This document shows positions 32,129 through 50,744 of a stretch of DNA of 55,201 nt, one piece after another. The stretch covers positions 1 through 55,201 of the forward strand of contig CAZKFV010000094.1 of the NCBI GenBank assembly GCA_964552295.1. The letters are read 5' to 3'. This DNA is from an uncultured Thermotogae bacterium. GTDB taxonomy: Bacteria > Bipolaricaulota > Bipolaricaulia > UBA7950 > UBA9294. The position numbers and the translations under genes were made by a program. The notes beneath the pieces are model-generated. The model did not search any database, was not told the DNA's origin, and saw only the letters and a list, made by a program, of their open reading frames with translations. Position 1 is the first letter of the stretch; each line of letters opens with the position of its first letter.

Positions 32129-32289
32129 TGGTGATGAGAACGAGAGGGCAGCTGGCGGATTCGCATTGCAGAGCCAAAATAGACCAACTGCGGGACTTAA
32201 GTACTTTTTCTCTTCCTTGTTCGAGGAAGGAGATGTTTGTACCATTCTCTAGAACATGAGTTCTTGCTTAAAGGAGTGAGTGACTAAAG

Positions 32290-34977: not shown

Positions 34978-35560
34978 CTCTTTTTCCGATTTAGTTAAGA
35001 TCATTGCTAGGCTACGGGCGCCAGACGGGTGCCCGTGGGATAGGGCACAGACCCATGTTAGTCTGCGCCCATATGTGCTGGAGGAAGCTCACGAGGTAAT
35101 TGCGGCCATCGATGCGGGCGAGCCAACGGCGCTGGCCGATGAGCTTGGTGATGTGCTACTGCAAGTTTTGTTGCACAGCCAGATCGCGACTGAAGAGGAT
35201 CAATTTACAATAGACGATGTCATTGACGGGCTTTCAAGAAAGATGATCCGCCGGCATCCGCATGTTTTTGCGGGCACCCCCAGCGATATGGAGTCGGTGC
35301 ATCGTTCCTGGGAAGACATCAAAAGCAAAGAGCGGTCTAGCAAGACAGCGCTTCCCACTCTTCTTGCTGCCAGAAAGCTCATTTCGCGCCTTGGCATGCT
35401 CCCAAATCAGATAACCCAGGCTGAATTCCACGATGAAGAAAGCAGGGCAGGAGGAATAATTCTAGCCTCCATAGCACGGGTGATGAATCAGGGAGTTGAT
35501 CCGGAGATAGCACTACGTAGAAGTATCGATTATTTCGCAAATAACTCAGCGAGGGACTAA
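34964..35560 (+). CDS. mazG: MazG family nucleoside triphosphate pyrophosphohydrolase
   Basis: LRAPDGCPWDRAQTH, EEAHEV, DELGDVLLQV, KMIRRHPHVF; GTG start at 34964 assumed. Confidence 0.88.
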   Translation: MTDLNSFSDLVKIIARLRAPDGCPWDRAQTHVSLRPYVLEEAHEVIAAIDAGEPTALADELGDVLLQVLLHSQIATEEDQFTIDDVIDGLSRKMIRRHPHVFAGTPSDMESVHRSWEDIKSKERSSKTALPTLLAARKLISRLGMLPNQITQAEFHDEESRAGGIILASIARVMNQGVDPEIALRRSIDYFANNSARD

Positions 35561-35808
35561 TGTGCGAGGCTAGTGTTTACTGGGTAAGTGCGACGGAGAG
35601 ACAGATTCATTTTGTGGATGCCATACTTAGCGCCTACGATGGCCTTGCAAACGTACGTCGGGAGTGGCGACTGCAGGATGGTCAGATGTTCTTCAAGATC
35701 TACGTTTCACCAGGAATGGAAGACGAGTTCGAATTGGTTATGGAACGCCTCTCTCGCGAGGCAGGCATTGGCAAGTTTTTCCGCGGAGAGGACAATGAGC
35801 CAGTGTAG
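35560..35808 (+). CDS. Small conserved protein (DUF4911-like)
   Basis: IHFVDAILSAYDGLANVR pattern; start overlaps mazG stop (TAATG). Confidence 0.6.
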   Translation: MCEASVYWVSATERQIHFVDAILSAYDGLANVRREWRLQDGQMFFKIYVSPGMEDEFELVMERLSREAGIGKFFRGEDNEPV

Positions 35809-36214
35809 CCCGCGCGAAAGAGTTCGTTCCATCTTCGATGTGGATTATGATAAGCTTTATGCTCTTGGTAAACGTGCGATTCTCTTTGATCTGGACAACA
35901 CTCTCGGCAAACGACGCCCAGCTCAACTCTCCCCGCAGGTTAGGGAACTGCTGGAAAGGCTGACAACGATGGGTTACCGTGTTGGCATTCTAACAAATCG
36001 CCGGATTGGCACTAAAGATCCAGTGATTTTGGAGCTTGCTGATAAGTACCCTGTCCGGTGCCGGGCTGGGAAACCTAGGCGCAGAGGATTTCGCGAAATC
36101 CTGGACCAAATAGGTGTTTCCCCTAAAAGCGCGGTTATGATTGGTGATCGGGTTTTTACAGACATCCTTGGGGCAAATCGCCTTGGAATTTACTCCATTC
36201 GCATCAAGGATTAG
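35795..36214 (+). CDS. YqeG-like HAD-IIIA phosphatase
   Basis: ILFDLDNTL, GILTN, AGKP, VMIGDRVFTDILGANRLG. Confidence 0.88.
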   Translation: MSQCSPRERVRSIFDVDYDKLYALGKRAILFDLDNTLGKRRPAQLSPQVRELLERLTTMGYRVGILTNRRIGTKDPVILELADKYPVRCRAGKPRRRGFREILDQIGVSPKSAVMIGDRVFTDILGANRLGIYSIRIKD

Positions 36215-36301
36215 TTATTGATTTTTCGGCGCGCAATAATTGGACTGAATCTTGGCTAGTAATGATCTATCGGCTATCATTTATGTGGATCGTTTTTGGG
36301 G

Positions 36302-36335
36302 CGGATACTTAACAGGATTGCCTATTAAGTATCCG
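36302..36335. promoter_or_regulatory. Inverted repeat upstream of the argF-led operon (operator or attenuator hairpin)
   Basis: CGGATACTTAA-caggattgccta-TTAAGTATCCG, 11-bp perfect arms. Confidence 0.45.
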
Positions 36336-36385
36336 TCGTTCGCATCAAACAGCATACAGTACGGCCATAGGGGAGGCAACAACAG

Positions 36386-37297
36386 ATGAAAACAAAGGAC
36401 CTTGTAGCGCTTTCGTATCTCACTGTGGAGGAGATGTATGAGATACTTGAAACAGCACGTAGTCTGAAACTCGAACACCGCGCTGGTGTAAAACACGAGA
36501 TGCTTTCAGGAAAGACACTAGCGATGATATTTGAGAAACCATCGCTAAGAACGCGGGTCTCATTTCAGAATGGCATGTACCAATTGGGCGGACACGCCAT
36601 ATACCTTGGGCCTGATGATATAAAGCTGGGAAAACGGGAGACCACGGAGGATATCGCGATGGTTTTATCCAGGTATGTTGATGGAATCATGGCCCGCGTT
36701 TTCGAGCATCAGACAATCGTTGACTTGGCTAAGTACGCCTCTGTGCCGGTTATCAACGCGCTGTGTGATCGCTATCACCCATGCCAGATCTTGGGAGACC
36801 TGCTTACTATTATGGAAAAAAGGCGGCAGCTTTCCGGTTTGACCCTCGCGTTTATTGGCGATGGCAACAATGTGGCGCACTCACTCATAAACGGTTGTGC
36901 CAAAGTTGGGATGGATTTTCGCATAGCTTGCCCTGAAGGTTATGAGCCTAATGAAGATATAGTACAGGAGGCGCGCTCCATTGGGGGCAAGGTCGAGATA
37001 ATACACGACCCTAACGAGGCAGCTAGAGGAGCTGATGTTTTGTACACGGATGTGTGGGCTAGTATGGGACAGGAAGTTGATTCCGAGCAGAAGAAGAACG
37101 CCTTTGTCGGATTCACCATAGATGAGAATTTGGTCAAGCTTGCCGATCGAGATGCGCTTGTCATGCACTGCCTGCCCGCTCACTACGATGAAGAAATCAC
37201 CTACGCAGCCTCGCGGAGTAAGGGAAGCGCAATCTTCGATCAGGCAGAAAACAGAATGCATGCGCAGAAGGCCGTGCTTGCGCTGGTTATGTCCTAA
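36386..37297 (+). CDS. argF: Ornithine carbamoyltransferase
   Basis: FEKPSLRTRVSF, HPCQ, GDGNNV, TDVWASMGQE, HCLPAH, QAENRMH. Confidence 0.96.
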   Translation: MKTKDLVALSYLTVEEMYEILETARSLKLEHRAGVKHEMLSGKTLAMIFEKPSLRTRVSFQNGMYQLGGHAIYLGPDDIKLGKRETTEDIAMVLSRYVDGIMARVFEHQTIVDLAKYASVPVINALCDRYHPCQILGDLLTIMEKRRQLSGLTLAFIGDGNNVAHSLINGCAKVGMDFRIACPEGYEPNEDIVQEARSIGGKVEIIHDPNEAARGADVLYTDVWASMGQEVDSEQKKNAFVGFTIDENLVKLADRDALVMHCLPAHYDEEITYAASRSKGSAIFDQAENRMHAQKAVLALVMS

Positions 37298-37300
37298 GAG

Positions 37301-38473
37301 GTGACCACGGTGAGCAATCAGCTTGTTCTTGGTTCCACAAACAAAGGTGACTGTACCGTTAGGGTAACAGAGTGTTTGGAACCCAGGATCAACATAGTGA
37401 CGGACAACGATCACCTGTTCGAAATGGGACTGCTTTCAGTGATAGAAGAATCGATGTCCGCATTAGGCACTGATACACTTTGCGTTGACCTGGAAGATCA
37501 TGGCGCTGTTGATTATGTGGTTATGGCAAGGGTTGAGGCGGCTGTGCGAGCAGTATCACCTCAGATAGGTGCGTGGCGGATAGGGACAAAGCAAGATAGC
37601 AGCACTAGGGACCGCCTGCGCAGAACTCGCCTTTACGCGCCTGGGAATAACCCTCACTTGCTGATGGGAGCAGAGCTATATGGTTCCGACTGCGTACTGC
37701 TGGACCTAGAAGATTCTGTTCCCCTATCAGAAAAGAATGTGGCGCGCATTCTGGTCAAGCATCTGCTGGCCGCAGTGGAGTTTCAAGAGGTGTGGGTGCG
37801 GATAGATCCACTTGAAACATGCGGAAGGGAAGATCTGGCAGAGGTGATGCTTGCTTCTCCACACGGTATATGTCTACCAAAGGCAGAGTCATGCAATGAT
37901 GTCTTTAAACTAGAAGAAGAAATGGCGGTTCTTGAAAGCAACCTAGAAATTGACCTCGGATCTACGTTCATAATGCCCATCATTGAGACTGGAAAAGGAG
38001 TGTTGAATGCTTTGGAGATAGCTTCCGCCAGCAAGCGGGTGGTAGTTATGGCCTTTGGTGCCGAGGACTACACGCGCGATGTTGGAGCAAATAGAACGCG
38101 GGAGGCGCTCTTGTATGCGCGCACGAAGATTGTAGCAGCGTGTGCCGCTTCGGGAATTCAGGCCTCAGATACGGTTTATGCGGACGTTGATGATGAAGAG
38201 GGCCTGATTGAGGAGACCAAGCATATTCGCGATCTTGGTTTTGTTGGTAAAGGGGCGATCAATCCTCGGCAGATAATGCCAATTCATGAGGTATTTCGCC
38301 CTACAGACGAACAGATTAAGTACGCTCGTGAAGTTATTGCTGTTGCCGACCAGGCAAAGGCTAAGGGGATTGGCGCAGTTGCACTACGTGGGAAGATGAT
38401 CGATTGGCCTGTTGTGGAAAGGGCCAAGAAACTAGTCGCGCATTTGGAACAGCTCGAGGAAAAATGGAGATAA
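37301..38473 (+). CDS. citE: Fusion of a degenerate citrate-lyase ACP (CitD-like) and a citryl-CoA lyase (CitE/HpcH family)
   Basis: N-domain EDHGAVDYVVMARVEAAV matches the CitD C-terminal motif; C-domain LYAPGNNP, LDLEDSV, IIETGKG, AFGAEDY, GKGAINPRQ. Confidence 0.85.
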   Translation: MTTVSNQLVLGSTNKGDCTVRVTECLEPRINIVTDNDHLFEMGLLSVIEESMSALGTDTLCVDLEDHGAVDYVVMARVEAAVRAVSPQIGAWRIGTKQDSSTRDRLRRTRLYAPGNNPHLLMGAELYGSDCVLLDLEDSVPLSEKNVARILVKHLLAAVEFQEVWVRIDPLETCGREDLAEVMLASPHGICLPKAESCNDVFKLEEEMAVLESNLEIDLGSTFIMPIIETGKGVLNALEIASASKRVVVMAFGAEDYTRDVGANRTREALLYARTKIVAACAASGIQASDTVYADVDDEEGLIEETKHIRDLGFVGKGAINPRQIMPIHEVFRPTDEQIKYAREVIAVADQAKAKGIGAVALRGKMIDWPVVERAKKLVAHLEQLEEKWR

Positions 38474-40017
38474 GAAACGCACTGGGTAGGCAGATCCCCG
38501 AGAAGGTTGGAAACAGGCTACTGCGTCCGTTTGAGGGGGTTTTCGCTACCGTGCCAAGTGGCAGAAAAGCCACTCGCCCTCAAAAAACTGTTAGAAAAGG
38601 CGAGAACAAGGTGCTTTCTTCTATCCAAAAGTCCATAGAAGCAACTGGTCTTGAAAGTGGCATGACGATCTCATTTCACCATTCATTCCGTAATGGTGAC
38701 TACGTGGTTAACATGGTGCTAGATGCCTGTGCTAAGATGGGAATAGAAGATTTACGTCTATTTGCAACAGCGCTTTTTCCGGTGCATGAACCCGTGATTG
38801 AGCATATCAAAAACGGCGTTGTAACACGAATTGAAGGCTCAATGAACGGGCCAATTGGGGCATTCGTATCTCAAGGGGGTCAGCTGAAGAGCCCGCCGGT
38901 GCTTCGTTCGCACGGTGGTCGTTGGAGGGCGGTGGAGGCTGGTGATGTTCATATCGATGTTGCGTTCATCGCTGCTTCCCAGGCGGATCCATACGGAAAT
39001 GCTAATGGCATATATGGCAAGACCCCTTGCGGACCGATCTCGTTTTCCATAGTGGATGCTCAATATGCGGAGAAAACCGTTGTAGTGACCAATGATCTAT
39101 CAAGATATCCAGCATACCCATTTGAGATTCAGCAGGGCTGGACAGATTACGTAGTAGTGGTAGATGAGATTGGAGATCCAAACAGCATTTCATCGGGAAC
39201 CCTTCAAATCACCCGTTCTCCGACTCGTTTAGGGATAGCTCGTCTGGCTGCAGCGGCAGTGAAGGCTTCTGGTTACATGAAGGATGGTTTCAGTTTTCAA
39301 GGAGGAGCTGGGGGTATATCACTAGCTGCTACAAAATTTGTGGGCGAGGAAATGGAACGGTCTGGAATTGTAGGCAGTTTTGCTATGGGTGGAGGAACAA
39401 GCTTGCTTGTAGATATTCTACATCGCGGATTGGTCCGGACTATCCTCGATGGGCAGGTATTCGATCTGGCAGCAGCAGAATCGATGCGAAATGATCCAAA
39501 CCATGTACTCATGGATCCTGGCCACTACGGCAACTATGACTCACGAGGTTGTGCTACGTACATGCTCGACGCGGCTTTCCTTGGGGCCACGGAAGTAGAT
39601 GTTGATTTCAATGTCAATGTAAACACCCACTCTGACGGCCAGCTTCTGCACGGAATTGGCGGTCACCAGGAGGTTGCTGTTGGAGCTAGCCTGACATTGA
39701 TTACCGTTCCTACCCTGAGAGGCAGGCTTCCTGTTATTGTAGATAAAGTGACTACAGTGACCACGCCAGGGGAGGTCATTGATGCTGTTGTAACCGAGCG
39801 TGGTATCGCAGTGAATCCCAGAAGGGGTGATCTGAAAGAGCGTTTCCTGGCTGCAGGTCTTCCGGTTCGTGAGCTTGTAAACATCAAGCGAGAGGCAGAT
39901 CGCTTGGTTCGCCCTCTTCGAAAGCCGATATTTGGCGATGAGGTAATAGCAGTGATTGAGTGGCAGGATGGAAGTGTTATTGATGTTGTGCGAAAAGTAG
40001 TAGGATGGCGCAGTTAG
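38464..40017 (+). CDS. citF: Citrate lyase alpha subunit / citrate CoA-transferase
   Basis: MTISFHHSFRNGD, RSHGGR, SFQGGAGG, LGATEVDVDFNVNV, GIGGHQ, VTTPGEVIDAVVTERGIAVNP. Confidence 0.93.
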   Translation: MEIRNALGRQIPEKVGNRLLRPFEGVFATVPSGRKATRPQKTVRKGENKVLSSIQKSIEATGLESGMTISFHHSFRNGDYVVNMVLDACAKMGIEDLRLFATALFPVHEPVIEHIKNGVVTRIEGSMNGPIGAFVSQGGQLKSPPVLRSHGGRWRAVEAGDVHIDVAFIAASQADPYGNANGIYGKTPCGPISFSIVDAQYAEKTVVVTNDLSRYPAYPFEIQQGWTDYVVVVDEIGDPNSISSGTLQITRSPTRLGIARLAAAAVKASGYMKDGFSFQGGAGGISLAATKFVGEEMERSGIVGSFAMGGGTSLLVDILHRGLVRTILDGQVFDLAAAESMRNDPNHVLMDPGHYGNYDSRGCATYMLDAAFLGATEVDVDFNVNVNTHSDGQLLHGIGGHQEVAVGASLTLITVPTLRGRLPVIVDKVTTVTTPGEVIDAVVTERGIAVNPRRGDLKERFLAAGLPVRELVNIKREADRLVRPLRKPIFGDEVIAVIEWQDGSVIDVVRKVVGWRS

Positions 40018-40156
40018 TTGATAATTCCAGTTACATCTCCTAGAATTACCTCTTTGGTCTTCTGACAAGGTGAACAAGAAGACAGCATAAAAGCGTATTC
40101 AGTCTGGCAAATATAGTGCCTCATATTGAGGTTTGGAATTACTGAAGGAGGGTGTT

Positions 40157-41440
40157 GTGAGACTGTACGAGCATGAGGCAAAGAGGATATTCCAGTCCAA
40201 GGGGATACCTATACCGGAGCAGTATGGAGTAATTCATTCCCCTGAGCAGCTGGCAGAAGTAAAGGTAGAATATCCCGTTATGCTCAAAGCTGTAGTTCTA
40301 ATTGGGGGCAGGGGCAAAGCTGGGGGAATCAAAAGGGCTTCAGATCCAGAAGAGGCCAAGGCTAAGGCAGAGGAGCTGTTCAACCTCAAGATTCGGGGTT
40401 ATCCTGTGGAAAGCGTGCTTCTTGAAAGGGCGGTGGAGGAAATTGGAGCTTGCTACGTTGGGATAACTATGGACCCAGCAAGCTATAATAATGTCGTGAT
40501 TCTGAGCGCATCTGGTGGTGTAGAGATAGAGACGGTAGCTAAGGAGAAGCCAGAGGCAATTCATAGGTTTGAAGTTGTCGGAAATGAGCTGGAGCTGTCC
40601 AAGGAAATATCAGATGATCTGGCAGGCAAGCTTTCAAAAGATCTGGGGGAGCAGGCTGGCAATAAGGAACAGCTTTCACAAATTCTATCTAAGCTCTACG
40701 CAGTTTATCAGGATGTCGATGCAAAGGTCTGTGAGATCAATCCACTTATACTTACACCCGATGGCCCCATAGCAGCTGATGCTAAATTGGTGCTAGATGA
40801 TAACGCCCTTTTCCGGCAGGTGAAATTGCTGGAGCAGTTGGGTATTGCTGGAAAGAGGCATGACGTAGCAGAGTTGACATCTAATGAGAAGCGCGCGCAG
40901 AAAGCAGGCTTTCCGTATGTTGACCTCCTTGCAGAGGATGCTGCAAAGGATCCTAAAAAGCTGTATGTTGGACTTGTTCCTGGTGGCGCTGGTTATGGAA
41001 TCTTCTCCATCGATGAAGTGGCCAATATTGGGGACCGCTTCTTTCAGGGAAAAGTTGTTCCGGTCAACTTCATGGACTCTGGAGGTGGCCCTTCTCAAGG
41101 AAAAGTTGCAGAGATGTTTCATCTGCTCATGGATTATGAAAAGGTTGACATGATTATCACATCACGATTTGGTGGCGTATCAAGTTGTGATACTTTCATC
41201 CGTGGTCTTATCCAAGCCTTGAGAGAACGACATGAGGCTGGAGAAAGGGTAATTCCGGTATATGGGAGAATGGTAGGCACGGATCTTCCCAGCGCCAGGG
41301 CATATCTGGAAAAGGCAAAAGGGAGCCCTGCGGATCCAGCATTGGAGAAGATGACTATCATCGTTGGAAACCAGAAGATCATGGCTGATGTCATTAAAAA
41401 AGGGATTAGTAAGGCATTTGAAAGTAAGGGGTGGAACTGA
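40157..41440 (+). CDS. ATP-grasp acyl-CoA synthetase beta subunit (SucC/citryl-CoA synthetase large-like)
   Basis: LYEHEAK, KAVVLIGGRGKAGGI, SGGVEIE, EINPL, AADAKLVLDDNALFRQ, NFMDSGGG, FGGVSSCD; GTG start after SD AAGGAGG. Confidence 0.85.
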   Translation: MRLYEHEAKRIFQSKGIPIPEQYGVIHSPEQLAEVKVEYPVMLKAVVLIGGRGKAGGIKRASDPEEAKAKAEELFNLKIRGYPVESVLLERAVEEIGACYVGITMDPASYNNVVILSASGGVEIETVAKEKPEAIHRFEVVGNELELSKEISDDLAGKLSKDLGEQAGNKEQLSQILSKLYAVYQDVDAKVCEINPLILTPDGPIAADAKLVLDDNALFRQVKLLEQLGIAGKRHDVAELTSNEKRAQKAGFPYVDLLAEDAAKDPKKLYVGLVPGGAGYGIFSIDEVANIGDRFFQGKVVPVNFMDSGGGPSQGKVAEMFHLLMDYEKVDMIITSRFGGVSSCDTFIRGLIQALRERHEAGERVIPVYGRMVGTDLPSARAYLEKAKGSPADPALEKMTIIVGNQKIMADVIKKGISKAFESKGWN

Positions 41441-43575
41441 TGGAGCGAATATCAGCAGATCATGGAATGCTCTACTATCTTATCAAGCAATCTCATCCAG
41501 AGATAGCGGGGCATATCGAAGAAACCAATGAGATAGATACCATCGTTGTCGGTCTTGGTCGACAGGGAGCGCGGCATGCTGGATTGATGCAAGAGTTTGG
41601 AACTAAGATTACAGCTGGTATAGCTCCAGGCAGAGGTGGAACTCGTGTTCATGAAACCATTCCTGTATATGAAACCGTTAAGGATTGCCTCAAGGATCAC
41701 CCTTACATTGCTGCAGCAAGCATCTGGAAGCACTATTCAACAGCTAGGGATGCTACCATCGAGGTCATAGAAGCTGGTATTCCTGTCGTTGTTCTCATAA
41801 GTGAAGGGATACCCATTCGCGATGTTAGAGATATCTTGGTAGCCGCGAGGATGCATGGAGCGCTTCTGATTGGTGGGAATTCGCCTGGCGTAATATTTCC
41901 CCCCGAAAGGGTAAAAGTAGGCATGCTGCCTGATATTTTCTATCCAGAGGAAACGGGTTCCGGGCAGCTAGGCCCAAATGGAGTCACCATTATATCGCGT
42001 AGCGGTGCTATTCTTTACCATATGTCTGATGCGTTGGCTAGTGTAGGAATAGCTCAAAACGCCGTTATTGGAGTAGGTGGTGACGGCGCAATAGGATCTA
42101 CGTTCTCGGACCTGGTTCCCTTAGCCATGAAATATCCGCATACTGATCTGGTAGTGATTGCTGGAGAGATCGGTGGAATACAGGAGGAAAGGCTAGCCAA
42201 AGACATTGCGGATCACCCTGAGAAATATCCCAAGCCGATTATTGCCGAGATATCTGGGGCTCATGCTCCAGCAGGAAAGACCATGGGGCATGCTGGAGCG
42301 ATAGTCGCTCCAGGACAGTCTTATGGTACATTCGAGTCCAAAAGGTCTGCTTTGGAAAGTGCTGGTGTAACCGTGGTGAATTCGCAGTATGACCTAATCG
42401 TAGAAGTGGAAAAGAGCCTTGGCAAAAAGTATTTTGATACTGATAGGTATTATGAAAAGATGAGGACGATCTGGGAGGCTCCACCCAAGGCTCCAAGTTG
42501 GGCGACCCTGATAACCAAGGTGGAGCCGAACAATCTTATGCTTTCTGGCTATCCCCTTCAGCAGATAGTGGAACGAAAAACACTTCTCGAAACCGCTTGC
42601 TTGTTGGTCAAAGGGGAATTTCCGTCTCCAAAAGCTTTGGAAGAGCAAAGGAAGGTCGCGCTTCAAGCAGTGGCAGAATCCGGGCCAATTGTGAAGCTAG
42701 ATCAGGGTGAGGATGTATCCAAAACGCTGGCTAAAACCCTCCTGCTGGATAAGGCACTGGCCGCGTTCACCACTGTGGGAACTGACGGTGAAGTGCTGAA
42801 AACTAGCTATGCCCTGGGCCGAATAGCAAACTACTTGGGCACTATCTTGGGCACATCTTCTGCCTTGAAAGGATTGCCCGATGATATTAGCTTTGCTGAC
42901 GTAATCGGAAGGATTATTACCGGCAAAGCAGAATGTGGGAAGGATGTCTCCAAGATGCTGGAGAAAATGATTATAGCTTCCGTTGACCACGGGGTAACTC
43001 CTCCTTCTGCTCAAGCCACCTTAATTGCGGCTTCTACCAGGACGCCCTATGAGGTGGCTGTAGCTCATGGAGTGGGCGTAATCACCGACGTCCATGGTGG
43101 TGCTGGGGCAAAGGCAGCCGAGTTTTTCTCGCAATGTGTGTCTAGGGCGACTGCTAAAAACATAGATCTTGAGGGCGCCACCAGAGAAGTTATGAGCGAA
43201 TACATAAGGGATGGGCGTAGGATAGAAGGTATGGGACACAGGGTTCATACCAAGGATCCCCGACGTGACGTCCTGTGGAGTCTGGCAGATGAAGCAGGGA
43301 TTGCTGGAGACAACGTAGAGGTTTCAAAAATAGTTGCCGGCGTATTTAAGCAAGTGCGAGGGATGGATCTTCCCATAAATGTGGACGGCGTGATTGGTGC
43401 GATCGTCGCAGATATGAAACTTGATCCTTGGCTAGCCAAGGTGCTTTTCATTTGGGGCCGTGTCGCAGGTCTTTCTGCTCATTACTTCGAGGAGGTAGCT
43501 TCTCAACCTCAAATGAGAAGAATAAACTTCGGTGAAGTTGTCTATAAAGGAAAACCTTACCGAGACGTGCCATAA
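41440..43575 (+). CDS. Acyl-CoA synthetase alpha subunit (SucD-like) fused to a citryl-CoA lyase (citrate-synthase-fold) domain; AclA-like architecture
   Basis: GIAPGRGG, ISEGIP, IGGNSPG, SRSGAI, GEIGG, phospho-His motif GKTMGHAGA; C-terminal WATLITKVEPN, VDHGVTPPS, VHGGAG, GMGHRVHTKDPR, PINVDG. Confidence 0.88.
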   Translation: MERISADHGMLYYLIKQSHPEIAGHIEETNEIDTIVVGLGRQGARHAGLMQEFGTKITAGIAPGRGGTRVHETIPVYETVKDCLKDHPYIAAASIWKHYSTARDATIEVIEAGIPVVVLISEGIPIRDVRDILVAARMHGALLIGGNSPGVIFPPERVKVGMLPDIFYPEETGSGQLGPNGVTIISRSGAILYHMSDALASVGIAQNAVIGVGGDGAIGSTFSDLVPLAMKYPHTDLVVIAGEIGGIQEERLAKDIADHPEKYPKPIIAEISGAHAPAGKTMGHAGAIVAPGQSYGTFESKRSALESAGVTVVNSQYDLIVEVEKSLGKKYFDTDRYYEKMRTIWEAPPKAPSWATLITKVEPNNLMLSGYPLQQIVERKTLLETACLLVKGEFPSPKALEEQRKVALQAVAESGPIVKLDQGEDVSKTLAKTLLLDKALAAFTTVGTDGEVLKTSYALGRIANYLGTILGTSSALKGLPDDISFADVIGRIITGKAECGKDVSKMLEKMIIASVDHGVTPPSAQATLIAASTRTPYEVAVAHGVGVITDVHGGAGAKAAEFFSQCVSRATAKNIDLEGATREVMSEYIRDGRRIEGMGHRVHTKDPRRDVLWSLADEAGIAGDNVEVSKIVAGVFKQVRGMDLPINVDGVIGAIVADMKLDPWLAKVLFIWGRVAGLSAHYFEEVASQPQMRRINFGEVVYKGKPYRDVP

Positions 43576-43665
43576 TCTACTGAAGAGAAGAATATCAAAG
43601 TGTAGGCATAGAATGAGCAGCAAGTCTAATTTAAGCATATTGGACGCCGTAAGGAGGATAAAAGC

Positions 43666-44202
43666 ATGACAATGAGAGAAGATATCCTGCGGATTCTGCC
43701 TGAGATTGAGCTAATTGAAGACGAATCGTTACGCCAAATGGTGACAAAAACCTGGGAAGACGCGCTGGTTCGTGGCAAATGGGAGGCCTCTGATATCCAG
43801 AGTATGCCGTTTACCTTGGCCAAGAAAGTGGATATCAGCTTCGCCCAACATGTGCGAAGCGTAACCAAAATATCCCTTGCTGCGGTTGAGATATTCGATG
43901 AAATTTATAAGGGCAAGTTAACACTAAATCGCGACTTAGTTCTTGCTGGAGCACTGCTGCACGATGTGGGAAAGCTCCTGGAGATGGAGAAAGTTGACGG
44001 CGTATTTCGCAAGAGCCATGAGGGGAAACTTGTACGACATCCCTTCTCTGGGGTTGCACTTGCAGATGCAAACGGCGCTCCTCCGGAAGTGCAGCATATA
44101 ATCGGGACTCACTCCAAGGAGGGAGATCCGTACAAGCGCACGCCGGAGTCAGTTATCGTGCACTTGGCTGACTTTATGAACTTCGATACAGTGGAGGGTT
44201 GA
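43666..44202 (+). CDS. HD-domain (HDIG) metal-dependent phosphohydrolase
   Basis: QHVRSV, GALLHDVGKL, RHPFSG, IIGTHS, IVHLADF. Confidence 0.85.
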   Translation: MTMREDILRILPEIELIEDESLRQMVTKTWEDALVRGKWEASDIQSMPFTLAKKVDISFAQHVRSVTKISLAAVEIFDEIYKGKLTLNRDLVLAGALLHDVGKLLEMEKVDGVFRKSHEGKLVRHPFSGVALADANGAPPEVQHIIGTHSKEGDPYKRTPESVIVHLADFMNFDTVEG

Positions 44203-45479
44203 CAGAGATGGGAATGACGTTTGCCCAAAAGATCCTTTCCCAGAAAGCCGGCCTTGATCATGTTGAGGTAGGCCAGATAGTAGAGATCACGCCTGATTAC
44301 TGTATGTCTCACGACAACACAGCGGCTATTAGCAAGACCTTTGCTAGCATTGGAGTCGATCGCGTGAAGGACCCGGAGAAGTTTGTAATCATTCTCGATC
44401 ACACGGTTCCTGCGTCGACGGAGAAGTATGCTCTTGGACACAAGGAGATCCGCGAGTTTGTGGCGGCTCAGGGGATAGAAAACTTCTATGACGGCGGCGT
44501 TGGGATATGTCATCAAGTGTTGCCTGAGAGGGGGTTCGCTCTGCCTGGTACGCTGATCCTTGGTTCGGATTCCCATACCACAACTTACGGGGCATTCGGT
44601 GCTTTTTCTGCTGGTATTGGCCGTTCGGAAATGGCTGTTCTATATGCTACATCGAAGATATGGCTGAAGACCCCGGAGACTTTCAAGATAGTGATTAACG
44701 GTCAGTTGCGTGAACCTGTTACCTCAAAGGACCTCATGCTGAAAATAATCGGGGATATCGGTGCTGACGGAGCTCTCTATCGTTCCATCGAGTTTTCAGG
44801 TGAGGCAATTTCACAGATGAGCTTGGCATCGCGTATGGTGCTCTCCAACATGGCAATAGAGTGTGGAGCCAAGAATGGATACATAGCTCCTGACGAGAAT
44901 ACTTTCCGCTTTCTCGAGGGACGGGCGGTAAGGGACTATTACCCGTTATATCCTGATAGCGATGCTCAATATGAGAAAGAGCTTGAACTAGATGCCGCGC
45001 AGCTTGGTCCACAGGTAGCAAAACCACACACTGTGGATAATGTCTCGCCAGTGGAGCAGGTAGAAGGCACCAAGATTGATCAGGTCCTGCTGGGTACTTG
45101 TACCAACGGACGACTGGAAGATCTACGATTGGCAGCGAGGATTCTTTCTGGAAAGAAAATTGCCAAAGGTGTGCGAATGCTGATCCTTCCGGCATCGCAG
45201 GAGGTTCTTCTCGATGCTCTATCGGAGGGGTTGATCAGCATTTTTGTACGTGCGGGAGCTATTATGTTGAACCCGGGCTGCGGCCCTTGTTTAGGGGCGC
45301 ACCAAGGGGTGTTAGCTCCAGGCGAGGTTTGCTTGTCCACTGCTAACCGCAACTTCAAGGGTAGGATGGGGTCATCAGAGGCAGAGATCTACCTCGCATC
45401 CCCAGCCACAGTCGCTGCGTCGGCCCTTACCGGAGCAATCACTGATCCTCGCGATGTATTCCAAGGAGGTGTCAGATGA
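44199..45479 (+). CDS. leuC: 3-isopropylmalate dehydratase/homoaconitase-family large subunit (short LeuC/HacA type)
   Basis: MSHDNT, GICHQV, GSDSHTTTYGAFG, GTCTNGR and GCGPC [4Fe-4S] cysteines, STANRNFKGRMG. Confidence 0.88.
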   Translation: MTEMGMTFAQKILSQKAGLDHVEVGQIVEITPDYCMSHDNTAAISKTFASIGVDRVKDPEKFVIILDHTVPASTEKYALGHKEIREFVAAQGIENFYDGGVGICHQVLPERGFALPGTLILGSDSHTTTYGAFGAFSAGIGRSEMAVLYATSKIWLKTPETFKIVINGQLREPVTSKDLMLKIIGDIGADGALYRSIEFSGEAISQMSLASRMVLSNMAIECGAKNGYIAPDENTFRFLEGRAVRDYYPLYPDSDAQYEKELELDAAQLGPQVAKPHTVDNVSPVEQVEGTKIDQVLLGTCTNGRLEDLRLAARILSGKKIAKGVRMLILPASQEVLLDALSEGLISIFVRAGAIMLNPGCGPCLGAHQGVLAPGEVCLSTANRNFKGRMGSSEAEIYLASPATVAASALTGAITDPRDVFQGGVR

Positions 45480-45967
45480 GCAAGGGCAACGTGTGGAAAT
45501 ATGGAGACGATATCAACACAGACGTCATATTTCCCGGCAAGTACACGTATCAACCGTTAACCCCAGGAGAAATGGCGACCCACGCGATGGAGGATCTTGA
45601 CCCCGATTTTGCAACTAACGTCAAGCAGGGGGATGTTGTAGTAGCTGGGGCTAACTTTGGCTGCGGCTCGTCACGCGAGCAAGCAGCCACATGCCTGAAA
45701 GCTGCAGGAGTGGCGGCGGTAATTGCTAAGTCCTTCTCGCGCATCTTCTTTAGAAATGCCATCAATAGTGGTCTTCCCGTAATTGAGTTGAAGCGTGGAA
45801 TCGAGAGTATAAAAAAGCAAGACACAGTTGAGATTGACTTTGAAAATGGGATTGTGATACACGAAGGTAATGAATATCACTTTCCCGCCCTGCCAAAGGA
45901 AGTGCTGGCAATTCTCGAAGATGGCGGTCTTATTGCGCATGTAAGAAAGGAGTTAGGAAAAGTATAA
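45476..45967 (+). CDS. leuD: 3-isopropylmalate dehydratase/homoaconitase-family small subunit
   Basis: DINTDVIFPGKY, NFGCGSSREQA, AKSFSRIFFRNAINSGLP, ILEDGGLI. Confidence 0.88.
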   Translation: MSKGNVWKYGDDINTDVIFPGKYTYQPLTPGEMATHAMEDLDPDFATNVKQGDVVVAGANFGCGSSREQAATCLKAAGVAAVIAKSFSRIFFRNAINSGLPVIELKRGIESIKKQDTVEIDFENGIVIHEGNEYHFPALPKEVLAILEDGGLIAHVRKELGKV

Positions 45968-46139
45968 ATGTTTTGTTGTAAGATACCGTGTCTTTGCTAA
46001 GTGAATGGGAATGGAATAGGCACGCTTTATACAAATCCGGTATACCAAGCATGCGACAGCAACTTTGACAGACCGAAAAATCGCAAAAGAAACGGTGAAG
46101 CAGTTGTTTAACAACCAGCAGCAAGTCATAAAAGGAGAA

Positions 46140-46287
46140 AAACAAAGAGATTGTTCAAGGTGTCTTGAGCCATGCCGATGAAGAACTTCTCCTGTGGGTG
46201 GTATATCTTGAGACGAAAGGGATAATAAGGGGGATAACAGCTTATTGGATTTCAAAGCTCGATAGATATTTAGAGGGAAAACGATGA
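46140..46287 (+). pseudogene. Frameshifted C-terminal remnant of a DUF4258-like (RelE-fold) toxin
   Basis: LLLWVVYLETKG then, after a frameshift, ITAYWISKLDRYLEGKR*; stop overlaps the DUF2283 ATG (ATGA); 5' boundary approximate. Confidence 0.5.
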
Positions 46288-46514
46288 GAGTCAGATATGA
46301 TGAAGAAGCTGATGCGTTCTACATCAAGCTTCGGTAACGGGAGCATCACGAAAGCGACTAGGTCAAAGATGGGTTCATCTTTGACTATGATGTGAATGGG
46401 AATACCACTGGCATTAAAATCTTGAACGCTTCGGCTCATTTTGCCCCTGCTGAGCTCTCCACCGTTAATTTCGAGATTACTCGACCACTGATGAGAGCGG
46501 GAGAGAAGAGCTAA
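46284..46514 (+). pseudogene. DUF2283-family antitoxin pseudogene with two in-frame stops
   Basis: MRVRYDEEADAFYIKLR*REHHESD*VKDGFIFDYDVNGNTTGIKILNAS...; YD..AD..YI.L and D.D..G...GI.IL.AS are DUF2283 hallmarks. Confidence 0.8.
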
Positions 46515-46521
46515 GGCACAG

Positions 46522-46650
46522 TTTGAGAACAGTGTAGTGACCTGCGAACGTAACGAATATCACTTTCCCTCCCTGCCCGTGGAAGTCCTCGCCATCCTCC
46601 AAGACGGCGGCCTGATCCCGCTTGTAAGGAAGCAGTTAAAAGGCAGATGA
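46522..46650 (+). pseudogene. Orphan diverged duplicate of the leuD 3' end (43 codons)
   Basis: FENSVVTCERNEYHFPSLPVEVLAILQDGGLIPLVRKQLKGR* versus leuD 45839-45967; 28/42 aa identical, same length. Confidence 0.85.
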
Positions 46651-46771
46651 ATGTTTGGGTTAAGGCTTTTTTACTTCGTTTGATAACAGATCTTCCTTAG
46701 TGTAGCGCGGACTGTGCATAGCTGGTAAGCTATTGCAAAACGAAGAACCTGGCTATTTGAGGAGGTTTTAG

Positions 46772-47764
46772 ATGGATTACAGGCCTATTCAACTACCCCG
46801 TGATCTGGCTGGCTTAGGAGAGATGATCTATGATGCTTTTCAATACCCGGAAAACCCGCAATGGAGTATACAAGCAGACGAGAAAGAAGATATCTATCAT
46901 ACAATTGCTAGCTTCAGACATCTCTGGCCCCTTGTACGTATAGCGCAGTTTCTTTCCCCGCCAATGCGTGACATGTTCAAGGGCTACGTGGCTGTGGAGG
47001 ACGGAAAGATTGCCGCTGTAACAATCATCCAGCGCAGCGGAACCACTAGTACTTGGGTAGTTGGAGTAGTTGGTGTTCTTCCCCAATACCGGCGTTTGGG
47101 AGTGGCACGCAACTTATTGGGCTTGTCTCTTGAAATGATGAAGGAGCGTGGATCTGAAAGAACGTGGCTGGGGGTGATCAATGGAAATATACCTGCCCAG
47201 AGGTTATACGAAAGCCTTGGATTTAGGGTTTTTGATGCAATGACTGAGTACTCTTTAAGTAAGCCCGTTGTTTCATCCATAGCCCCTTTGCCTGTGGGAT
47301 ACAGTATCTCACGCCTACCTCGTTCAGACTGGAAGACAAGGCTTTCTTTCGAAAGGCGTATCACGCCAGAAGAAGCTAGCCTGTATCAGCCCGTTGTAAC
47401 AGGGCGCTTCCGGCAGGGCCCGGTGGCCCTTGCCTTAAGTCCCATTGTTAACGCGATTCAACGCAAGAAGGAGAAAGCATTTGTTGTGCGGCAGAAAGGC
47501 GATGGCGAAGCTGTGGCCCGCTGCTCTTACTCTGCCTCAATGAGAGGCAAAGGAGTAAACTCAATCTCTGTACGTATTGATCCCAAGCATCCAAAGTTGG
47601 CTTCTGCCCTGGTTGGATTGATGTTACAAAGGGTAGTCTCGCAGAGCCCTAGACTAAGGGTGGAAATTGCAACACCGAAGTGGATGCCGGCAGTTGCTGA
47701 GGCTGCTGAGGGTTTTGGATTCAAGAAAAGGGTTGAGTATCTAAAGATGGGCTTGTCATGGTGA
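46772..47764 (+). CDS. GNAT family N-acetyltransferase (tandem-GNAT length)
   Basis: VGVLPQYRRLGVARNLL, GNIPAQRLYESLGF; second degenerate GNAT-like half. Confidence 0.85.
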   Translation: MDYRPIQLPRDLAGLGEMIYDAFQYPENPQWSIQADEKEDIYHTIASFRHLWPLVRIAQFLSPPMRDMFKGYVAVEDGKIAAVTIIQRSGTTSTWVVGVVGVLPQYRRLGVARNLLGLSLEMMKERGSERTWLGVINGNIPAQRLYESLGFRVFDAMTEYSLSKPVVSSIAPLPVGYSISRLPRSDWKTRLSFERRITPEEASLYQPVVTGRFRQGPVALALSPIVNAIQRKKEKAFVVRQKGDGEAVARCSYSASMRGKGVNSISVRIDPKHPKLASALVGLMLQRVVSQSPRLRVEIATPKWMPAVAEAAEGFGFKKRVEYLKMGLSW

Positions 47765-47908
47765 TTTCCTGTCTAGCTCTTTTTGTGAGCTAGTGTAAAC
47801 GCGGGTAGGCAGGGAAGAATGCATCAGTATAAGGTATAGAAAGTATTTTGGATTTCTGAGTGCAAGGTGTACTATGTTACCTCTTGTATGTGATTTTGGA
47901 GGTAGACT

Positions 47909-48892
47909 TTGAAGGTGTTAGTAACCGGAGCTACCGGATTCATCGGCTCTAATGTCGCTCGTGCACTTCTGCAACGTGGGTATAAGGTGAAGGCACTCGT
48001 TCGAGAGGGATCCGACAGACGTAACTTGAGCAACCTTGATGTAGAGCTTGCCAAAGGCGATATTCGAGATCTTGATGCTCTGAAGAAGGCTGTAGCTGGT
48101 TGCAAGATAGTCTTTCATGCAGCTGCGCTGTATTCGTTCTGGGTTCAACCTCGTGATCTCATCTATGATGTAAACGTAGGGGGTACTCGCAACGTCCTTG
48201 AAGCTTGCCTGCAAATGGGTATTGAAAGGGTAGTTTACACAAGCTCGGTTGCTGCTCTTGCCTTGCCTAAGGATGATGAACCGGTAGATGAGTCTACGCC
48301 AGTACACCCTGAGCAAATCATCGGGGATTACAAGAAGAGCAAGTACTTGGCAGAACAGGTTGCACTGGAGTTTTCAAAGAAAATGCCGGTGGTGATAGTT
48401 AATCCGAGCTTTCCTGTAGGCCCCGGTGACCTCAAACCTACACCTACAGGCCAAGTAATACTCGATTTTTTGAAGCGAAAGATGCCCGCCTACGTTGAGA
48501 CGGGAATGAATGTGGTTGATGTAGAGGACGTTGCTGTGGGCCATATTCTTGCTGCAGATAAAGGTCGAGTTGGACAGCGCTATATTCTTGGTAACACGAA
48601 TATGACGATGGGAGAACTTCTTAACCTGTTAGAGCAGATAACCTCCATTCCTGCGCCAAAGGTTAAACTTCCCTACTATCCTTTACTTAGCCTGTCCTAT
48701 TTGAACGCTTTTATGTGTAAGATTACGCGCACTGCGCCGCGGATGACGCCGGAGACCATTCGTATGTCGGGACATTACATGTACTTTGACCCAAGCAAAG
48801 CAATTAATGAGCTTGGTCTACCTCAAAGTCCACCCAGCCAGGCACTGCGTAAGGCGGTGAAATGGTTTAAAGACAACAATTACGTCAAGTAA
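47909..48892 (+). CDS. NAD-dependent epimerase/dehydratase, HpnA/dihydroflavonol-reductase-like
   Basis: LVTGATGFIGS, FHAAA, YTSSVA, YKKSK, VNPSFPVGPGDLKPTPTG. Confidence 0.9.
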   Translation: MKVLVTGATGFIGSNVARALLQRGYKVKALVREGSDRRNLSNLDVELAKGDIRDLDALKKAVAGCKIVFHAAALYSFWVQPRDLIYDVNVGGTRNVLEACLQMGIERVVYTSSVAALALPKDDEPVDESTPVHPEQIIGDYKKSKYLAEQVALEFSKKMPVVIVNPSFPVGPGDLKPTPTGQVILDFLKRKMPAYVETGMNVVDVEDVAVGHILAADKGRVGQRYILGNTNMTMGELLNLLEQITSIPAPKVKLPYYPLLSLSYLNAFMCKITRTAPRMTPETIRMSGHYMYFDPSKAINELGLPQSPPSQALRKAVKWFKDNNYVK

Positions 48893-49150
48893 ATACCTTT
48901 CTCTTCCGACAGCTTAGCCTCCTGTTGGTACTGAAATCTGGGATCACCCGCCCCGGTCCTTTAAGGATCAAATGCAACGGAGTTAACTCTCAAGCGAACC
49001 TGTTTTAGTGGTTCAAGCTTATCGGCTCTCTGGAAACGACAATAACCTAGAGCCGATGATACGCCACATCTGTATAGGTCAGTTTGATCTGGACGCTTTA
49101 TCTAAGCAGAGGCGAGAGCAATCATGTGAATAATATTGGTTCTCCGCTGT

Positions 49151-49185
49151 TTCGAGTGGGTAGTTGAAGGTAGTTGTGCTAAACA
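49151..49185 (-). repeat. 35-bp dispersed motif, copy B (inverted relative to 469-503)
   Basis: Reverse complement tgtttagcacaactaccttcaactacccactcgaa. Confidence 0.65.
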
Positions 49186-49248
49186 GGGCGGCTTTCAAAA
49201 GAGACGTAATACAGTGATGCTTATCAGTAAGAAAGACCAAAAATATAC

Positions 49249-49471
49249 TCGCGCAGGGACCTGTCTGCGTCTGCCTGTGCGTGTACGCACGCAGACAGGT
49301 CCGAAGGACAGGCAGGCGCATAGTGGCTGGGGCCAGAGGAAAGCAGTAGGGTTTGGAAAAGAAGATAGAAGGGGTTTTCTTGAGCGCTCTCACGTCTCGA
49401 GCGGGCGAGAGAAAGGTTTTTGTCAGTTATAATTTGCAATCTTTGTTATCCACTGTAAACAGCGAAGAGCC
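49249..49471 (+). mobile_element. ~223-bp non-coding dispersed composite repeat, copy 2
   Basis: Begins TCGCGCAGGGACCTGTCTGCG and ends CACTGTAAACAGCGAAGAGCC, as copy 1 (3933-4169). Confidence 0.75.
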
Positions 49472-49477
49472 ATAATG

Positions 49478-49648
49478 TCACTTCTTTTCCTCCCTGTCTA
49501 GGTATCGGAGGATAGCATCCACCACCAGATAGTTGATGGAGCGGTCACGCGTATCGCTCAGCTTGATCAAACGCTCTACAGGTCTTTCGTCCATCTTCTT
49601 TTGTGGAATGTAGATGGAGAGTTTGTCGAGGATCTCTTTCTTGGCCAT
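49478..49648 (-). CDS. Small ribbon-helix-helix DNA-binding protein, paralog 2 (56 aa); absent from the ORF track (<60 aa)
   Basis: MAKKEILDKLSIYIPQKKMDERPVERLIKLSDTRDRSINYLVVDAILRYLDREEKK*; SD-like GAGGGGG upstream. Confidence 0.85.
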   Translation of the reverse strand: MAKKEILDKLSIYIPQKKMDERPVERLIKLSDTRDRSINYLVVDAILRYLDREEKK

Positions 49649-49952
49649 AAAATACCCCCTCTGTCTTTTGGATACTTCATGTTACAGTTTTTTATTGGTG
49701 TTGACAAGAGTTTCCTGCATATAAGGGGCATAAGCCCCATCGATTGAATTGGAGCCCAGTTATTTGTAATTTGTTGCATAGGCTGTATCTGTAAGGAGAG
49801 AAGCATTGGAAAAGCGGCCTCTCCGGTCAATAAGCAGCGCATTATTTTCAGTTATGAGTGGTTATAGACTTAACGCAGCTGTCTATTGGCGTCAATATTC
49901 ATGGTTGCGTGCTGCGAAAAGAAGTGTATTGAATCAGGAGATCCTGGCTACG

Positions 49953-50744
49953 TCAAGTCGAGAACAGGGCATTGAAAACCATAAAAAGAGCTGCGGCGAG
50001 AGTTGTGTAAGCAAATATATTCTTCAGTTTGGCAGGCTTTATTCTTATTGCAAATTTTCCGCCTGTTAACCCACCTAGTACGGCCATAAATGCAACCGGA
50101 ATAACAAATTGAGGATCAAAGTGGCCTTGTACTGCATGTCCTATAAAGCCCATAATAGCTGTTGCGGCGACCATTGCAGAAGATGTGCCAATTGCCACGT
50201 TCATGGGCACGCCGCAGAGCAAAACCATCAAAGGCACCTTAAATGACCCGCATGATACTCCAACCGCTCCAGCTGCTAAACCTGCAAGTGCAGTGATCGG
50301 GATAGTAAGCCAAAGGTTGACGACATATTGTTGTCCTTGGAAATCGCGGTGCCAGTAGCCAAATCTTCTAATGTGGTTAGTCGGTCTGTCTTTTACATTC
50401 ATGAGCATGAGAAACCCTGCCATCACAAGAAGTCCGGCCAATAGCAGTTTTAAGGATACGCCGCTTGCATAATCTGAATAGTATCCGCCAACTAACGCCA
50501 TGATATCCGTTGGCGGGTCGATGATAAGCGCCAGTTTCCAATCCACCAGCTTGTTCTTATGAAAGATCAACATGCCAGCCAAGGCAGTCAACATAAGAAT
50601 AAATTGCGCTGATGTCGCTGCTTGGTGCATGGCTTGACCAGCCAATACCAGAACAAGAACATAGAAATTTCCGCCGCCACGGCCTGTCATGGTCATCAAC
50701 ACGGCAATAGCGAAAACAATGATGCCAACTAAAATGAAGTCCAT
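49953..50744 (-). CDS. TauE/SafE (TSUP) family sulfite exporter
   Basis: TMTGRGGGNFYVLVL, AVGVSCGSFKVP, AIGTSSAMVA; multiple TM helices. Confidence 0.88.
   Translation of the reverse strand: MDFILVGIIVFAIAVLMTMTGRGGGNFYVLVLVLAGQAMHQAATSAQFILMLTALAGMLIFHKNKLVDWKLALIIDPPTDIMALVGGYYSDYASGVSLKLLLAGLLVMAGFLMLMNVKDRPTNHIRRFGYWHRDFQGQQYVVNLWLTIPITALAGLAAGAVGVSCGSFKVPLMVLLCGVPMNVAIGTSSAMVAATAIMGFIGHAVQGHFDPQFVIPVAFMAVLGGLTGGKFAIRIKPAKLKNIFAYTTLAAALFMVFNALFST

Follow-up and report, generated by a model that had tools for sequence, protein, structure and literature searches.

A candidate ATP-citrate-lyase-type enzyme combining a succinyl-CoA-synthetase-like ligase with a fused citrate-synthase-fold lyase in Bipolaricaulota

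Two described systems for ATP-dependent citrate cleavage offer the closest comparisons for the gene pair considered here, which lies at positions 40157-43575 of a 55,201-nucleotide stretch of DNA (hereafter the window) from an uncultured bacterium of the phylum Bipolaricaulota (GenBank assembly GCA_964552295.1, contig CAZKFV010000094.1). The first is type I ATP-citrate lyase (ACL; AclB/AclA of Chlorobium limicola and Methanothrix, human ACLY; structures 6hxj, 6hxi and 6hxh), which the pair resembles in its two overlapping genes with the one for the ATP-grasp subunit first, in the union of a SucD-like phosphohistidine module and a citrate-synthase-fold lyase within the second subunit, and in the predicted four-step chemistry; the pair stands apart from it in having an HD-domain gene as partner. 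The second is the combination of citryl-CoA synthetase (CCS; CcsAB) and citryl-CoA lyase (CCL; Ccl) of Hydrogenobacter thermophilus (6hxq, 6hxp), in which, as here, a ligase resembling succinyl-CoA synthetase (SCS) is combined with a CCL-type lyase bearing a DHG-PPSA motif; there, however, the small ligase subunit and the lyase are encoded by separate genes and Ccl measures ~260 aa, whereas here the two are fused (711 aa). Beyond these, a putative “type II ACL” was proposed in silico for Magnetococcus and tubeworm symbionts (Hugler and Sievert 2011, cited in PMC3522073 and PMC6315080), and Thiel et al. 2017 (PMC5459899) described split or fused Planctomycetes gene sets of “SCS alpha/beta plus citrate synthase”, which they viewed as intermediate between CCS/CCL and ACL. 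Compared by description only, these share with the present pair that their part in ATP-dependent citrate cleavage is an in-silico proposal, that annotations call them SCS subunits and citrate synthase, that both split and fused forms occur and that biochemical characterisation is lacking. The type II ACL is placed in gammaproteobacterial gene clusters of the reductive tricarboxylic acid (rTCA) cycle, unlike the present pair, which stands beside HD-domain genes; moreover, its published primer peptides (VAKEEWF and NGFEAIA; PMC3522073) are absent from the family of our pair at up to two mismatches, so that this route to a link was abandoned. Both ACL and CCS/CCL are used as rTCA-cycle markers in metagenome surveys (e.g., PMC9802188, PMC9586279 and PMC11287216). 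The family is singled out neither in the rTCA-marker surveys nor in an archaeal gene-fusion study, and a biochemical characterisation of any of its members was not found in the literature.

We propose that the products of the pair, termed beta and alpha below, form a heteromeric enzyme of ACL-type chemistry that belongs to a lineage distinct from the canonical AclB/AclA, a reading to which we assign a probability of about 0.65.

Architecture, conservation and descent of the pair

The pair and its modules are as follows:

40157..41440, forward strand: beta subunit gene (427 aa), SucC-like, comprising an ATP-grasp domain and, at the C-terminus, a CoA-ligase domain
41440..43575, forward strand: alpha subunit gene (711 aa), a SucD-like module fused to a citrate-synthase-fold lyase domain
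41440..42465, forward strand: SucD-like module of alpha, with a Rossmann CoA-binding domain, the GEIGG glutamate and the phosphohistidine loop
42487..43575, forward strand: citrate-synthase-fold lyase domain of alpha (~360 aa), with the CCL-type DHGVTPPSA motif

These gene boundaries coincide exactly with those of the original prediction, which had been drawn from the DNA alone. The beta gene opens with a GTG at 40157, six bases downstream of an AAGGAGG, and ends at 41440, where its stop codon shares a single base (TGATG) with the ATG of alpha. Pfam profiles recover ATP-grasp_2 (3e-44) and Ligase_CoA in beta and, in alpha, CoA_binding, Ligase_CoA and Citrate_synt (profile positions 9-352 of 357, 6e-34), which together with the phosphohistidine loop bear out the AclA-like layout predicted for this chain. 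That loop reads GKTMGHAGA in alpha (GHAGA at 42286, His codon at 42289-42291); the same chain holds the GEIGG glutamate (codon 42166-42168) and WATLITKVEPN (42499-42531), while the family-specific motifs of the acid pocket in beta are GGAGYGIFSID (40982-41014), MDSGGGP (41072-41092) and FGGVSSCD (41168-41191). All four motifs quoted in the prediction (GHAGA, WATLITKVEPN, GGAGYGIFSID and FGGVSSCD) are thus located in the sequence. The conserved residues of the lyase domain, given by first codon base, are the histidines at 42988, 43093 and 43237, the aspartate at 43384 and the arginines at 43264, 43459 and 43516. Neither chain reaches an NCBIfam cut-off for SCS, citrate synthase or CCL: the best match of beta, SucC, scores 241 bits versus a cut-off of 370, and alpha scores 210 versus 336 with SucD, 196 versus 245 with citryl-CoA lyase and 70 versus 421 with the best citrate synthase model.

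The genome to which the window belongs (1.7 Mb in 129 contigs, 89% complete) encodes its own aconitase-iclR-icd-aclB-aclA cluster on contig C80, the site of its second Citrate_synt match (AclA, 615 aa; AclB, 426 aa), as well as an ordinary sucC/sucD pair on contig C121; hence, the pair in the window is neither the canonical ACL nor the SCS of this organism. Indeed, alpha shares no more than 25-27% identity with the AclA of the genome, and a BLAST comparison of beta with its AclB gives no match. In AclA the Citrate_synt profile is covered from position 162 to 355 (the short module of ~260 aa that spans 160-355 in type I ACL), as against 9 to 352 in alpha. As yardsticks for canonical AclB we used the proteins of loci L087 (85% identical to the genome's AclB) and L088, which score ~300 bits with PF16114 (Citrate_bind) and 250-307 bits with PF24948 (ACL ATP-grasp); by contrast, three family betas, including that of the window, show no match to PF16114 and reach 40-47 bits with PF24948 (47 for the window beta), under its cut-off of 83. 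Thus, the C-terminal domain of beta is of the SucC type, unlike the Citrate_bind domain of AclB, as had been supposed from the missing AclB citrate loop. These observations support a separate kind of putative ATP-dependent activate-and-cleave enzyme, and they uphold the earlier warning on annotation: both rTCA-cycle ACL and SCS would be wrong names for it.

Comparison with solved structures tells the same chains apart by module. For the SucD-like part of alpha, the SCS alpha chain gives 208 bits and CcsB 106; for beta, the values are 187 bits for SCS beta, 77 for CcsA and 56 for AclB; and the whole alpha chain gives 114 bits with Chlorobium AclA. SucCD is therefore the closest relative of both ligase parts in sequence and structure (37-40% identity; the N-terminal module of the alpha model fits SCS alpha chains with template-modelling (TM) scores of 0.88-0.91 and root-mean-square deviations of 2.4-2.7 Å), although it differs in its unaltered succinate-site motifs and its unfused alpha subunit. 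For the lyase part the best solved match is Hydrogenobacter Ccl (6hxp, 109 bits), ahead of citrate synthases (~50 bits) and the ACL lyase module (45 bits). An AlphaFold model of alpha shows two modules with a mean predicted local distance difference test (pLDDT) score of 79; among its stretches of low confidence are the phosphohistidine loop, the linker and some of the C-terminal tail. At full length, the fold that the model matches best is that of Chlorobium AclA (6hxj_B, E 4e-22).

The lyase domain aligns along the whole of the Pyrococcus citrate synthase 1aj8 (residues 24-351), and its motifs line up with the synthase motifs that contain the catalytic His/His/Asp and the oxaloacetate/citrate-binding residues. 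Two of these, His 43093 and Arg 43264, would hold the distal carboxylate, as in pig citrate synthase. Relative to Ccl, the domain is extended at its N-terminus by ~110-135 residues, which align with citrate synthase, and it differs from stand-alone citrate synthases in its fusion to a ligase module. The original prediction had this domain begin at WATLITKVEPN as in stand-alone Ccl: stand-alone homologues of ~367 aa do begin there, but the assignment to the Ccl type fails, as the domain is a complete citrate synthase fold of ~360 aa and not the short Ccl.

The family is strongly conserved (58-85% identity) and widespread, with a scattered occurrence in Bipolaricaulota, Aminicenantales, Chloroflexota, Thermoplasmatota and Asgard archaea. 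A word-indexed search returned 581 relatives, of which the best 120 are all 703-726 aa long and 65-100% identical; source names among the relatives include Bipolaricaulia, Acetothermia, Euryarchaeota, Thermoplasmatota, Chloroflexota, Odinarchaeota and Hodarchaeales, and their annotations vary between “succinyl-CoA synthetase alpha subunit” and “citrate/2-methylcitrate synthase”. Genome records yielded the full fusion in a Bipolaricaulota metagenome-assembled genome (MAG; 77%), Borrarchaeum, a Heimdallarchaeote, a Euryarchaeote and an “Eubacteriales” MAG. On clustering at 50% the full-length family shrinks to very few representatives, one of them from Aminicenantales, and the clustered search brings up other arrangements, namely shorter or more distant SucD-lyase fusions (P0139, P0143 and P0145), a split-alpha relative of 361 aa (P0122) and stand-alone “long” citrate-synthase-like proteins, which are the ~367-aa forms starting at the WATLITKVEPN position.

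In an alignment of 16 alphas (mean column identity 75%) the GKTMGHAGA loop, the GEIGG glutamate and the DHG, HGG, GHR, DPRR, NVDG, GR and MR motifs are invariant, as are all lyase residues that align with the catalytic and oxaloacetate-binding sites of citrate synthase; the CCL-type active-site motifs DHG..PPSA, GHR and NVDG are seen in the alignment with 6hxp and fall in invariant columns of the family. Likewise, beta retains an invariant EINPL glutamate, and across nine family betas aligned with eight SucC proteins GGAGYGIFSID, MDSGGGP, FGG(V/I)SSCD and GRMVGT are invariant and differ both from the SucC versions (NGAGL, GGI[TV]R) and from those of ACL (GGGAS, GGIANFT). In SucC, NGAGL..T(M/L)D and FGGI(T/V)R(C/G/A)D are the motifs of the succinate site. 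The alteration of the SCS-like motifs noticed in the prediction is thus real, and its invariance across the family means that it is not decay. The pair is under strong purifying selection.

Quick maximum-likelihood trees were built separately for the SucD-like part, beta and the lyase domain. The two ligase parts each form a tight clade on a long stem within the SucD and SucC radiations, respectively, far from canonical AclA and AclB, and the lyase domain groups with the “long” stand-alone forms, apart from a clade that holds Hydrogenobacter Ccl, other fusions and the ACL lyase module. A forced joint clade with canonical ACL is nevertheless not rejected by approximately unbiased (AU) tests (p 0.24 for the alpha module, 0.06 for beta). 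Hence, the predicted independent assembly gains from the position of the ligase parts inside the SCS radiation but is held back by the AU tests, and an origin of the pair from SCS independently of ACL is plausible rather than demonstrated.

By homology with SCS and ACL, the enzyme would work in four steps. The ATP-grasp domain of beta would transfer phosphate from ATP-Mg to the histidine in the mobile GKTMGHAGA loop of alpha; the phosphohistidine would swing to a site to which alpha and the C-terminal domain of beta both contribute, where the acid, most probably citrate, would be held by the GGAGYG and FGG(V/I)SSCD loops and converted to an acyl phosphate; CoA bound on the Rossmann domain of alpha would displace the phosphate to give citryl-CoA; and the citrate-synthase-fold domain, with its two histidines, aspartate and oxaloacetate-binding arginines, would cleave this to acetyl-CoA and oxaloacetate. 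Since all four steps are chemically reversible, citrate synthesis with formation of ATP would be equally possible. The invariance of the citrate-synthase-type catalytic and oxaloacetate-binding residues leads us to read the pair as a predicted reversible ATP-dependent citryl-CoA synthetase/lyase acting on citrate.

A two-gene cassette and its distribution

The pair is inserted in an operon with the following features:

37301..40017, forward strand: citrate-lyase-type transferase/lyase genes, a CitD-CitE fusion (37301-38473) and CitF (probable start 38464, end 40017)
40010..43640, forward strand: beta/alpha cassette (3.6 kb), present in the window genome and one relative
40018..40046, forward strand: sigma-70-like match TTGATA-17-TAGAAT at the 5′ edge of the cassette, the best of the region, weak
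43666..44202, forward strand: HD-domain protein (178 aa) with the di-metal ligand pattern H-HD-H-H-D, the neighbour that recurs most regularly across the family
44199..45967, forward strand: aconitase-family hydro-lyase, LeuC-like (44199-45479) and LeuD-like (45476-45967)

When the DNA of positions 32000-50000 was compared with ten genomes of the same genus, one (G158) proved to carry the whole region, eight to lack the pair precisely and one to be uninformative. In the eight, the match to the window breaks off at ~40009, where citF ends, and picks up again at ~43640-43650, with no gap and on one contig; in them citF directly overlaps the HD gene, its stop lying in one case (G123) inside the second and third codons of the latter. 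The start of the HD gene in the window is preceded by a repeat of the final ~20 bases of citF, AAGGAGG included, which looks like a short duplication flanking the insertion. Thus, given its precise absence from eight of the ten genomes, the beta/alpha pair is a transferable two-gene cassette inside a citDE-citF-HD-leuCD operon. This precise presence and absence within one genus is a new finding here and, as the operon is otherwise identical, amounts to a natural experiment on the contribution of the enzyme. The count of sigma-70-like sites in the region is not above that of shuffled sequences; the match at the cassette edge may be the cassette's own promoter.

A survey of 151 genomes of the phylum with the Citrate_synt profile found the AclA type in 48/151, a true citrate synthase in 29/151, the fusion type in 4/151 and no match in 73/151, with three genomes carrying two types. 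The four fusion-type genomes are that of the window and three of the genus g29 (G025, G042 and G140, which are 92%, 91% and 73% complete), where the fusion is the sole gene of the Citrate_synt family and lies in an Iso_dh-HD-beta-alpha-PrpD operon; there, the fusion therefore fills the place taken by citrate synthase or ACL in relatives. Among six other carrier genomes, two (G002 and G006) have no other citrate-synthase-family gene, and the remaining four have canonical AclA (two genomes), a true citrate synthase (one) or a short Ccl (one).

Substrate and direction of the reaction

Across 16 loci from at least six phyla, the pair is clustered with an HD-domain gene (14/16 loci), an aconitase-family gene that is either split and LeuCD-like or fused (~600 aa; 10/16), an Iso_dh-family gene (5/16), a PrpD-like gene (4/16) and citF (3/16). 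The CitF of the window operon passes the citrate-lyase equivalog cut-off (557 bits versus 501), and the LeuCD-like genes of the window do not encode the leucine enzymes, the genuine leu/ilv cluster (leuA, cimA, leuCD and leuB) being present on contig C28. Taken together, the intact ligase and lyase sites, the invariant residue set, the company of aconitase, isocitrate dehydrogenase (IDH) and CitF genes and the substitution in g29 make it most likely that the pair interconverts citrate with acetyl-CoA and oxaloacetate, coupled to ATP, through citryl-CoA. The suggestion in the original prediction of a possibly non-citrate specificity is accordingly not borne out, in view of the oxaloacetate/citrate-binding residues invariant in all 16 members, the recurring neighbours of the aconitase, IDH and CitF families and the lineage in which the fusion is the only citrate-synthase-family gene. 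As to direction, the slot beside the catabolic citrate-lyase-type CitDE/CitF suggests cleavage as the likelier one in the window operon.

Several points weigh against this reading. Citrate as substrate, the direction of flux and any role of the HD protein are inferred from homology and gene context; the loops of beta that would bind the acid are unlike those of both SCS and ACL, so that the pocket cannot be read by analogy; and in a genome that already has canonical aconitase, IDH and ACL as well as CitDE/CitF, a third citrate-cleaving enzyme looks redundant. Further, the partner hydro-lyases are non-orthologous between loci and most lack the aconitase-type arginine of the LeuD recognition loop, which among those examined is found only at locus L001. 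With at least three unrelated types of this loop, an attempt to read the substrate from it was uninformative. The Iso_dh and PrpD-like partners, too, fall far under every equivalog cut-off (~80-100 bits versus 458-950 for the PrpD-like neighbours). The HD protein, modelled with a pLDDT of 93.7, matches generic HD phosphohydrolases only (YhaM with a TM score of 0.66, then PgpH), and assigning it a function from its fold was therefore dropped.

The alternative that survives best, possible if on balance doubtful, is that the enzyme is an ATP-conserving citrate synthase (acetyl-CoA + oxaloacetate + ADP + Pi -> citrate + CoA + ATP) feeding citrate to the aconitase-like and IDH-like partners for 2-oxoglutarate in energy-limited anaerobes. 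It would account for the genomes (g29, G002 and G006) in which the fusion is the sole citrate-synthase-family gene and 2-oxoglutarate is still needed; the ligase parts resemble SCS, which normally runs towards ATP; and a phosphoenolpyruvate carboxykinase gene adjoins one of the clusters. There is also a precedent in Desulfobacter postgatei, the ACL of which reportedly runs in the synthase direction (Moller et al. 1987). In addition, the ACL reaction lies near equilibrium, at -8 kJ/mol in the cleavage direction (table in PMC13147460). On the other hand, the window pair sits beside catabolic CitDE/CitF, the possession of CitDE/CitF only by most of the genus suggesting a shared cleavage role, and the low cellular concentration of oxaloacetate would make an ATP-coupled synthase thermodynamically demanding. 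We consider that the fusion may act as an ATP-yielding synthase where it is the sole citrate-node enzyme.

That the acid activated and cleaved by the pair is an analogue of citrate (2-methylcitrate, homocitrate, citramalate or similar) and not citrate itself is unlikely. Such a role would fit the beta pocket motifs that are unlike those of SCS and ACL, the presence of canonical ACL, aconitase and IDH in the genome, neighbours whose best matches are homoaconitase and homoisocitrate dehydrogenase models, the PrpD-like genes nearby, and the lack of DapB and DapF in most carrier genomes. Yet all oxaloacetate-binding residues are invariant, and the conservation of the two presumed distal-carboxylate residues disfavours a pyruvate-derived substrate, for which reason citramalyl-CoA was rejected; the CitF score, too, points to citrate. 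2-Methylisocitrate is a tertiary alcohol and therefore no substrate for the co-occurring Iso_dh-type dehydrogenase, an incompatibility that, with the low PrpD-like scores, also led us to reject the methylcitrate cycle. Homocitrate and the alpha-aminoadipate pathway fare no better: in the window genome DapB, DapF and LysX are not recognisable and no lysine pathway was found, and the lack of LysX, with a single sub-threshold LysW-like match, indicates that the alpha-aminoadipate pathway is not encoded; with the oxaloacetate-binding residues intact, this candidate was likewise rejected.

Contig C72 (8681-12595) holds an adjacent Iso_dh-like/PrpD-like pair whose products are 51% and 67% identical to those of the genes flanking the fusion at L001. 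Next come a NUDIX gene and, in tandem, two small zinc-ribbon open reading frames, one of which is the weak LysW-like match (25 bits).

The CitD-like acyl-carrier domain of the window operon (37301-37560) reads LGSTNKGD. The canonical motif of E. coli and Klebsiella CitD is GTLESGD, so that a lysine would stand here in place of the prosthetic-group serine. The CitDE/CitF transferase and lyase may thus work on free CoA thioesters.

It is very improbable that CitF and the ligase form a carrier cycle, in which CitF would convert acetyl-CoA and citrate to acetate and citryl-CoA and beta/alpha would turn citryl-CoA, ADP and Pi into citrate, CoA and ATP, with a net gain of ATP from acetyl-CoA as in the acetate:succinate CoA-transferase/SCS cycle. 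This purely inferential idea draws on citF standing directly upstream of beta/alpha in two distant lineages (the Bipolaricaulota genus and a Hodarchaeales contig without citE) and on the use of free CoA thioesters suggested by GSTNKGD versus the canonical GTLESGD, but citF is missing at 13/16 loci and the strictly conserved lyase domain would be left without a role. That the pair is simply a divergent canonical ACL or SCS is scarcely credible, for all that source annotations name an SCS alpha subunit or citrate/2-methylcitrate synthase and that AclA is the best full-length fold match, given the bona fide aclBA and sucCD of the same genome, a beta without Citrate_bind and below the ACL ATP-grasp cut-off, the SCS cut-offs missed throughout, the changed succinate-site motifs and a 360-aa citrate synthase domain on alpha.

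Wider significance and further arrangements

An enzyme of ACL-type chemistry in this lineage would add a third architecture to those that cleave or synthesise citrate in an ATP-coupled manner, one accompanied by an HD partner. As pipelines differ in naming its members SCS, citrate synthase, CcsAB or ACL, inferences on carbon fixation or the TCA cycle may err either way, those affected concerning Bipolaricaulota, Thermoplasmatota, Aminicenantes and Asgard archaea. The full citrate synthase fold is further of relevance to the proposal that citrate synthase arose from citryl-CoA lyase. As a tentative conjecture, which may well prove wrong, HD, beta and alpha might constitute a horizontally mobile three-component citrate-node module of energy-limited anaerobes, serving as a reversible, ATP-conserving replacement for citrate synthase by substrate-level phosphorylation in the step that forms citrate; the HD protein would be an obligatory partner, e.g., in the hydrolysis of a phospho-intermediate or a regulatory nucleotide, and the full citrate-synthase-like domain, bearing motifs of citryl-CoA lyase, would represent a living intermediate of the proposed evolution from lyase to synthase.

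Some loci depart from the common arrangement. In a Hodarchaeales contig (L093:3530-10139) the pair follows a split class-I fumarase-type hydro-lyase and citF, without citE and without a nearby HD gene, i.e., with a different partner set for the same enzyme. At L095:53-3563 a stand-alone “long” citrate-synthase-like gene (P0124, 367 aa), which represents another subfamily, stands between LeuCD-like genes and an ATP-grasp gene that differs from the family beta and is closer to AclB (29% identity), an arrangement that points to further citrate-node architectures. In a lake-sediment MAG the beta/alpha pair is immediately followed downstream by ordinary sucC and sucD genes (L008:4675-6417).

Two repeated elements were also seen in the window. 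A dispersed element of ~340 bp (49130-49472 and 3933-4169) recurs on more than 20 other contigs of the genome at 85-97% identity, often at contig ends, with short cores also in one same-genus genome; it looks like a multicopy repeat resembling a miniature inverted-repeat transposable element (MITE) that fragments the assembly. A segment of ~170 nt from small ribbon-helix-helix (RHH) protein paralogues (49482-49649 and 10263-10430) is present in several copies in every same-genus genome, conserved at 72-80%.

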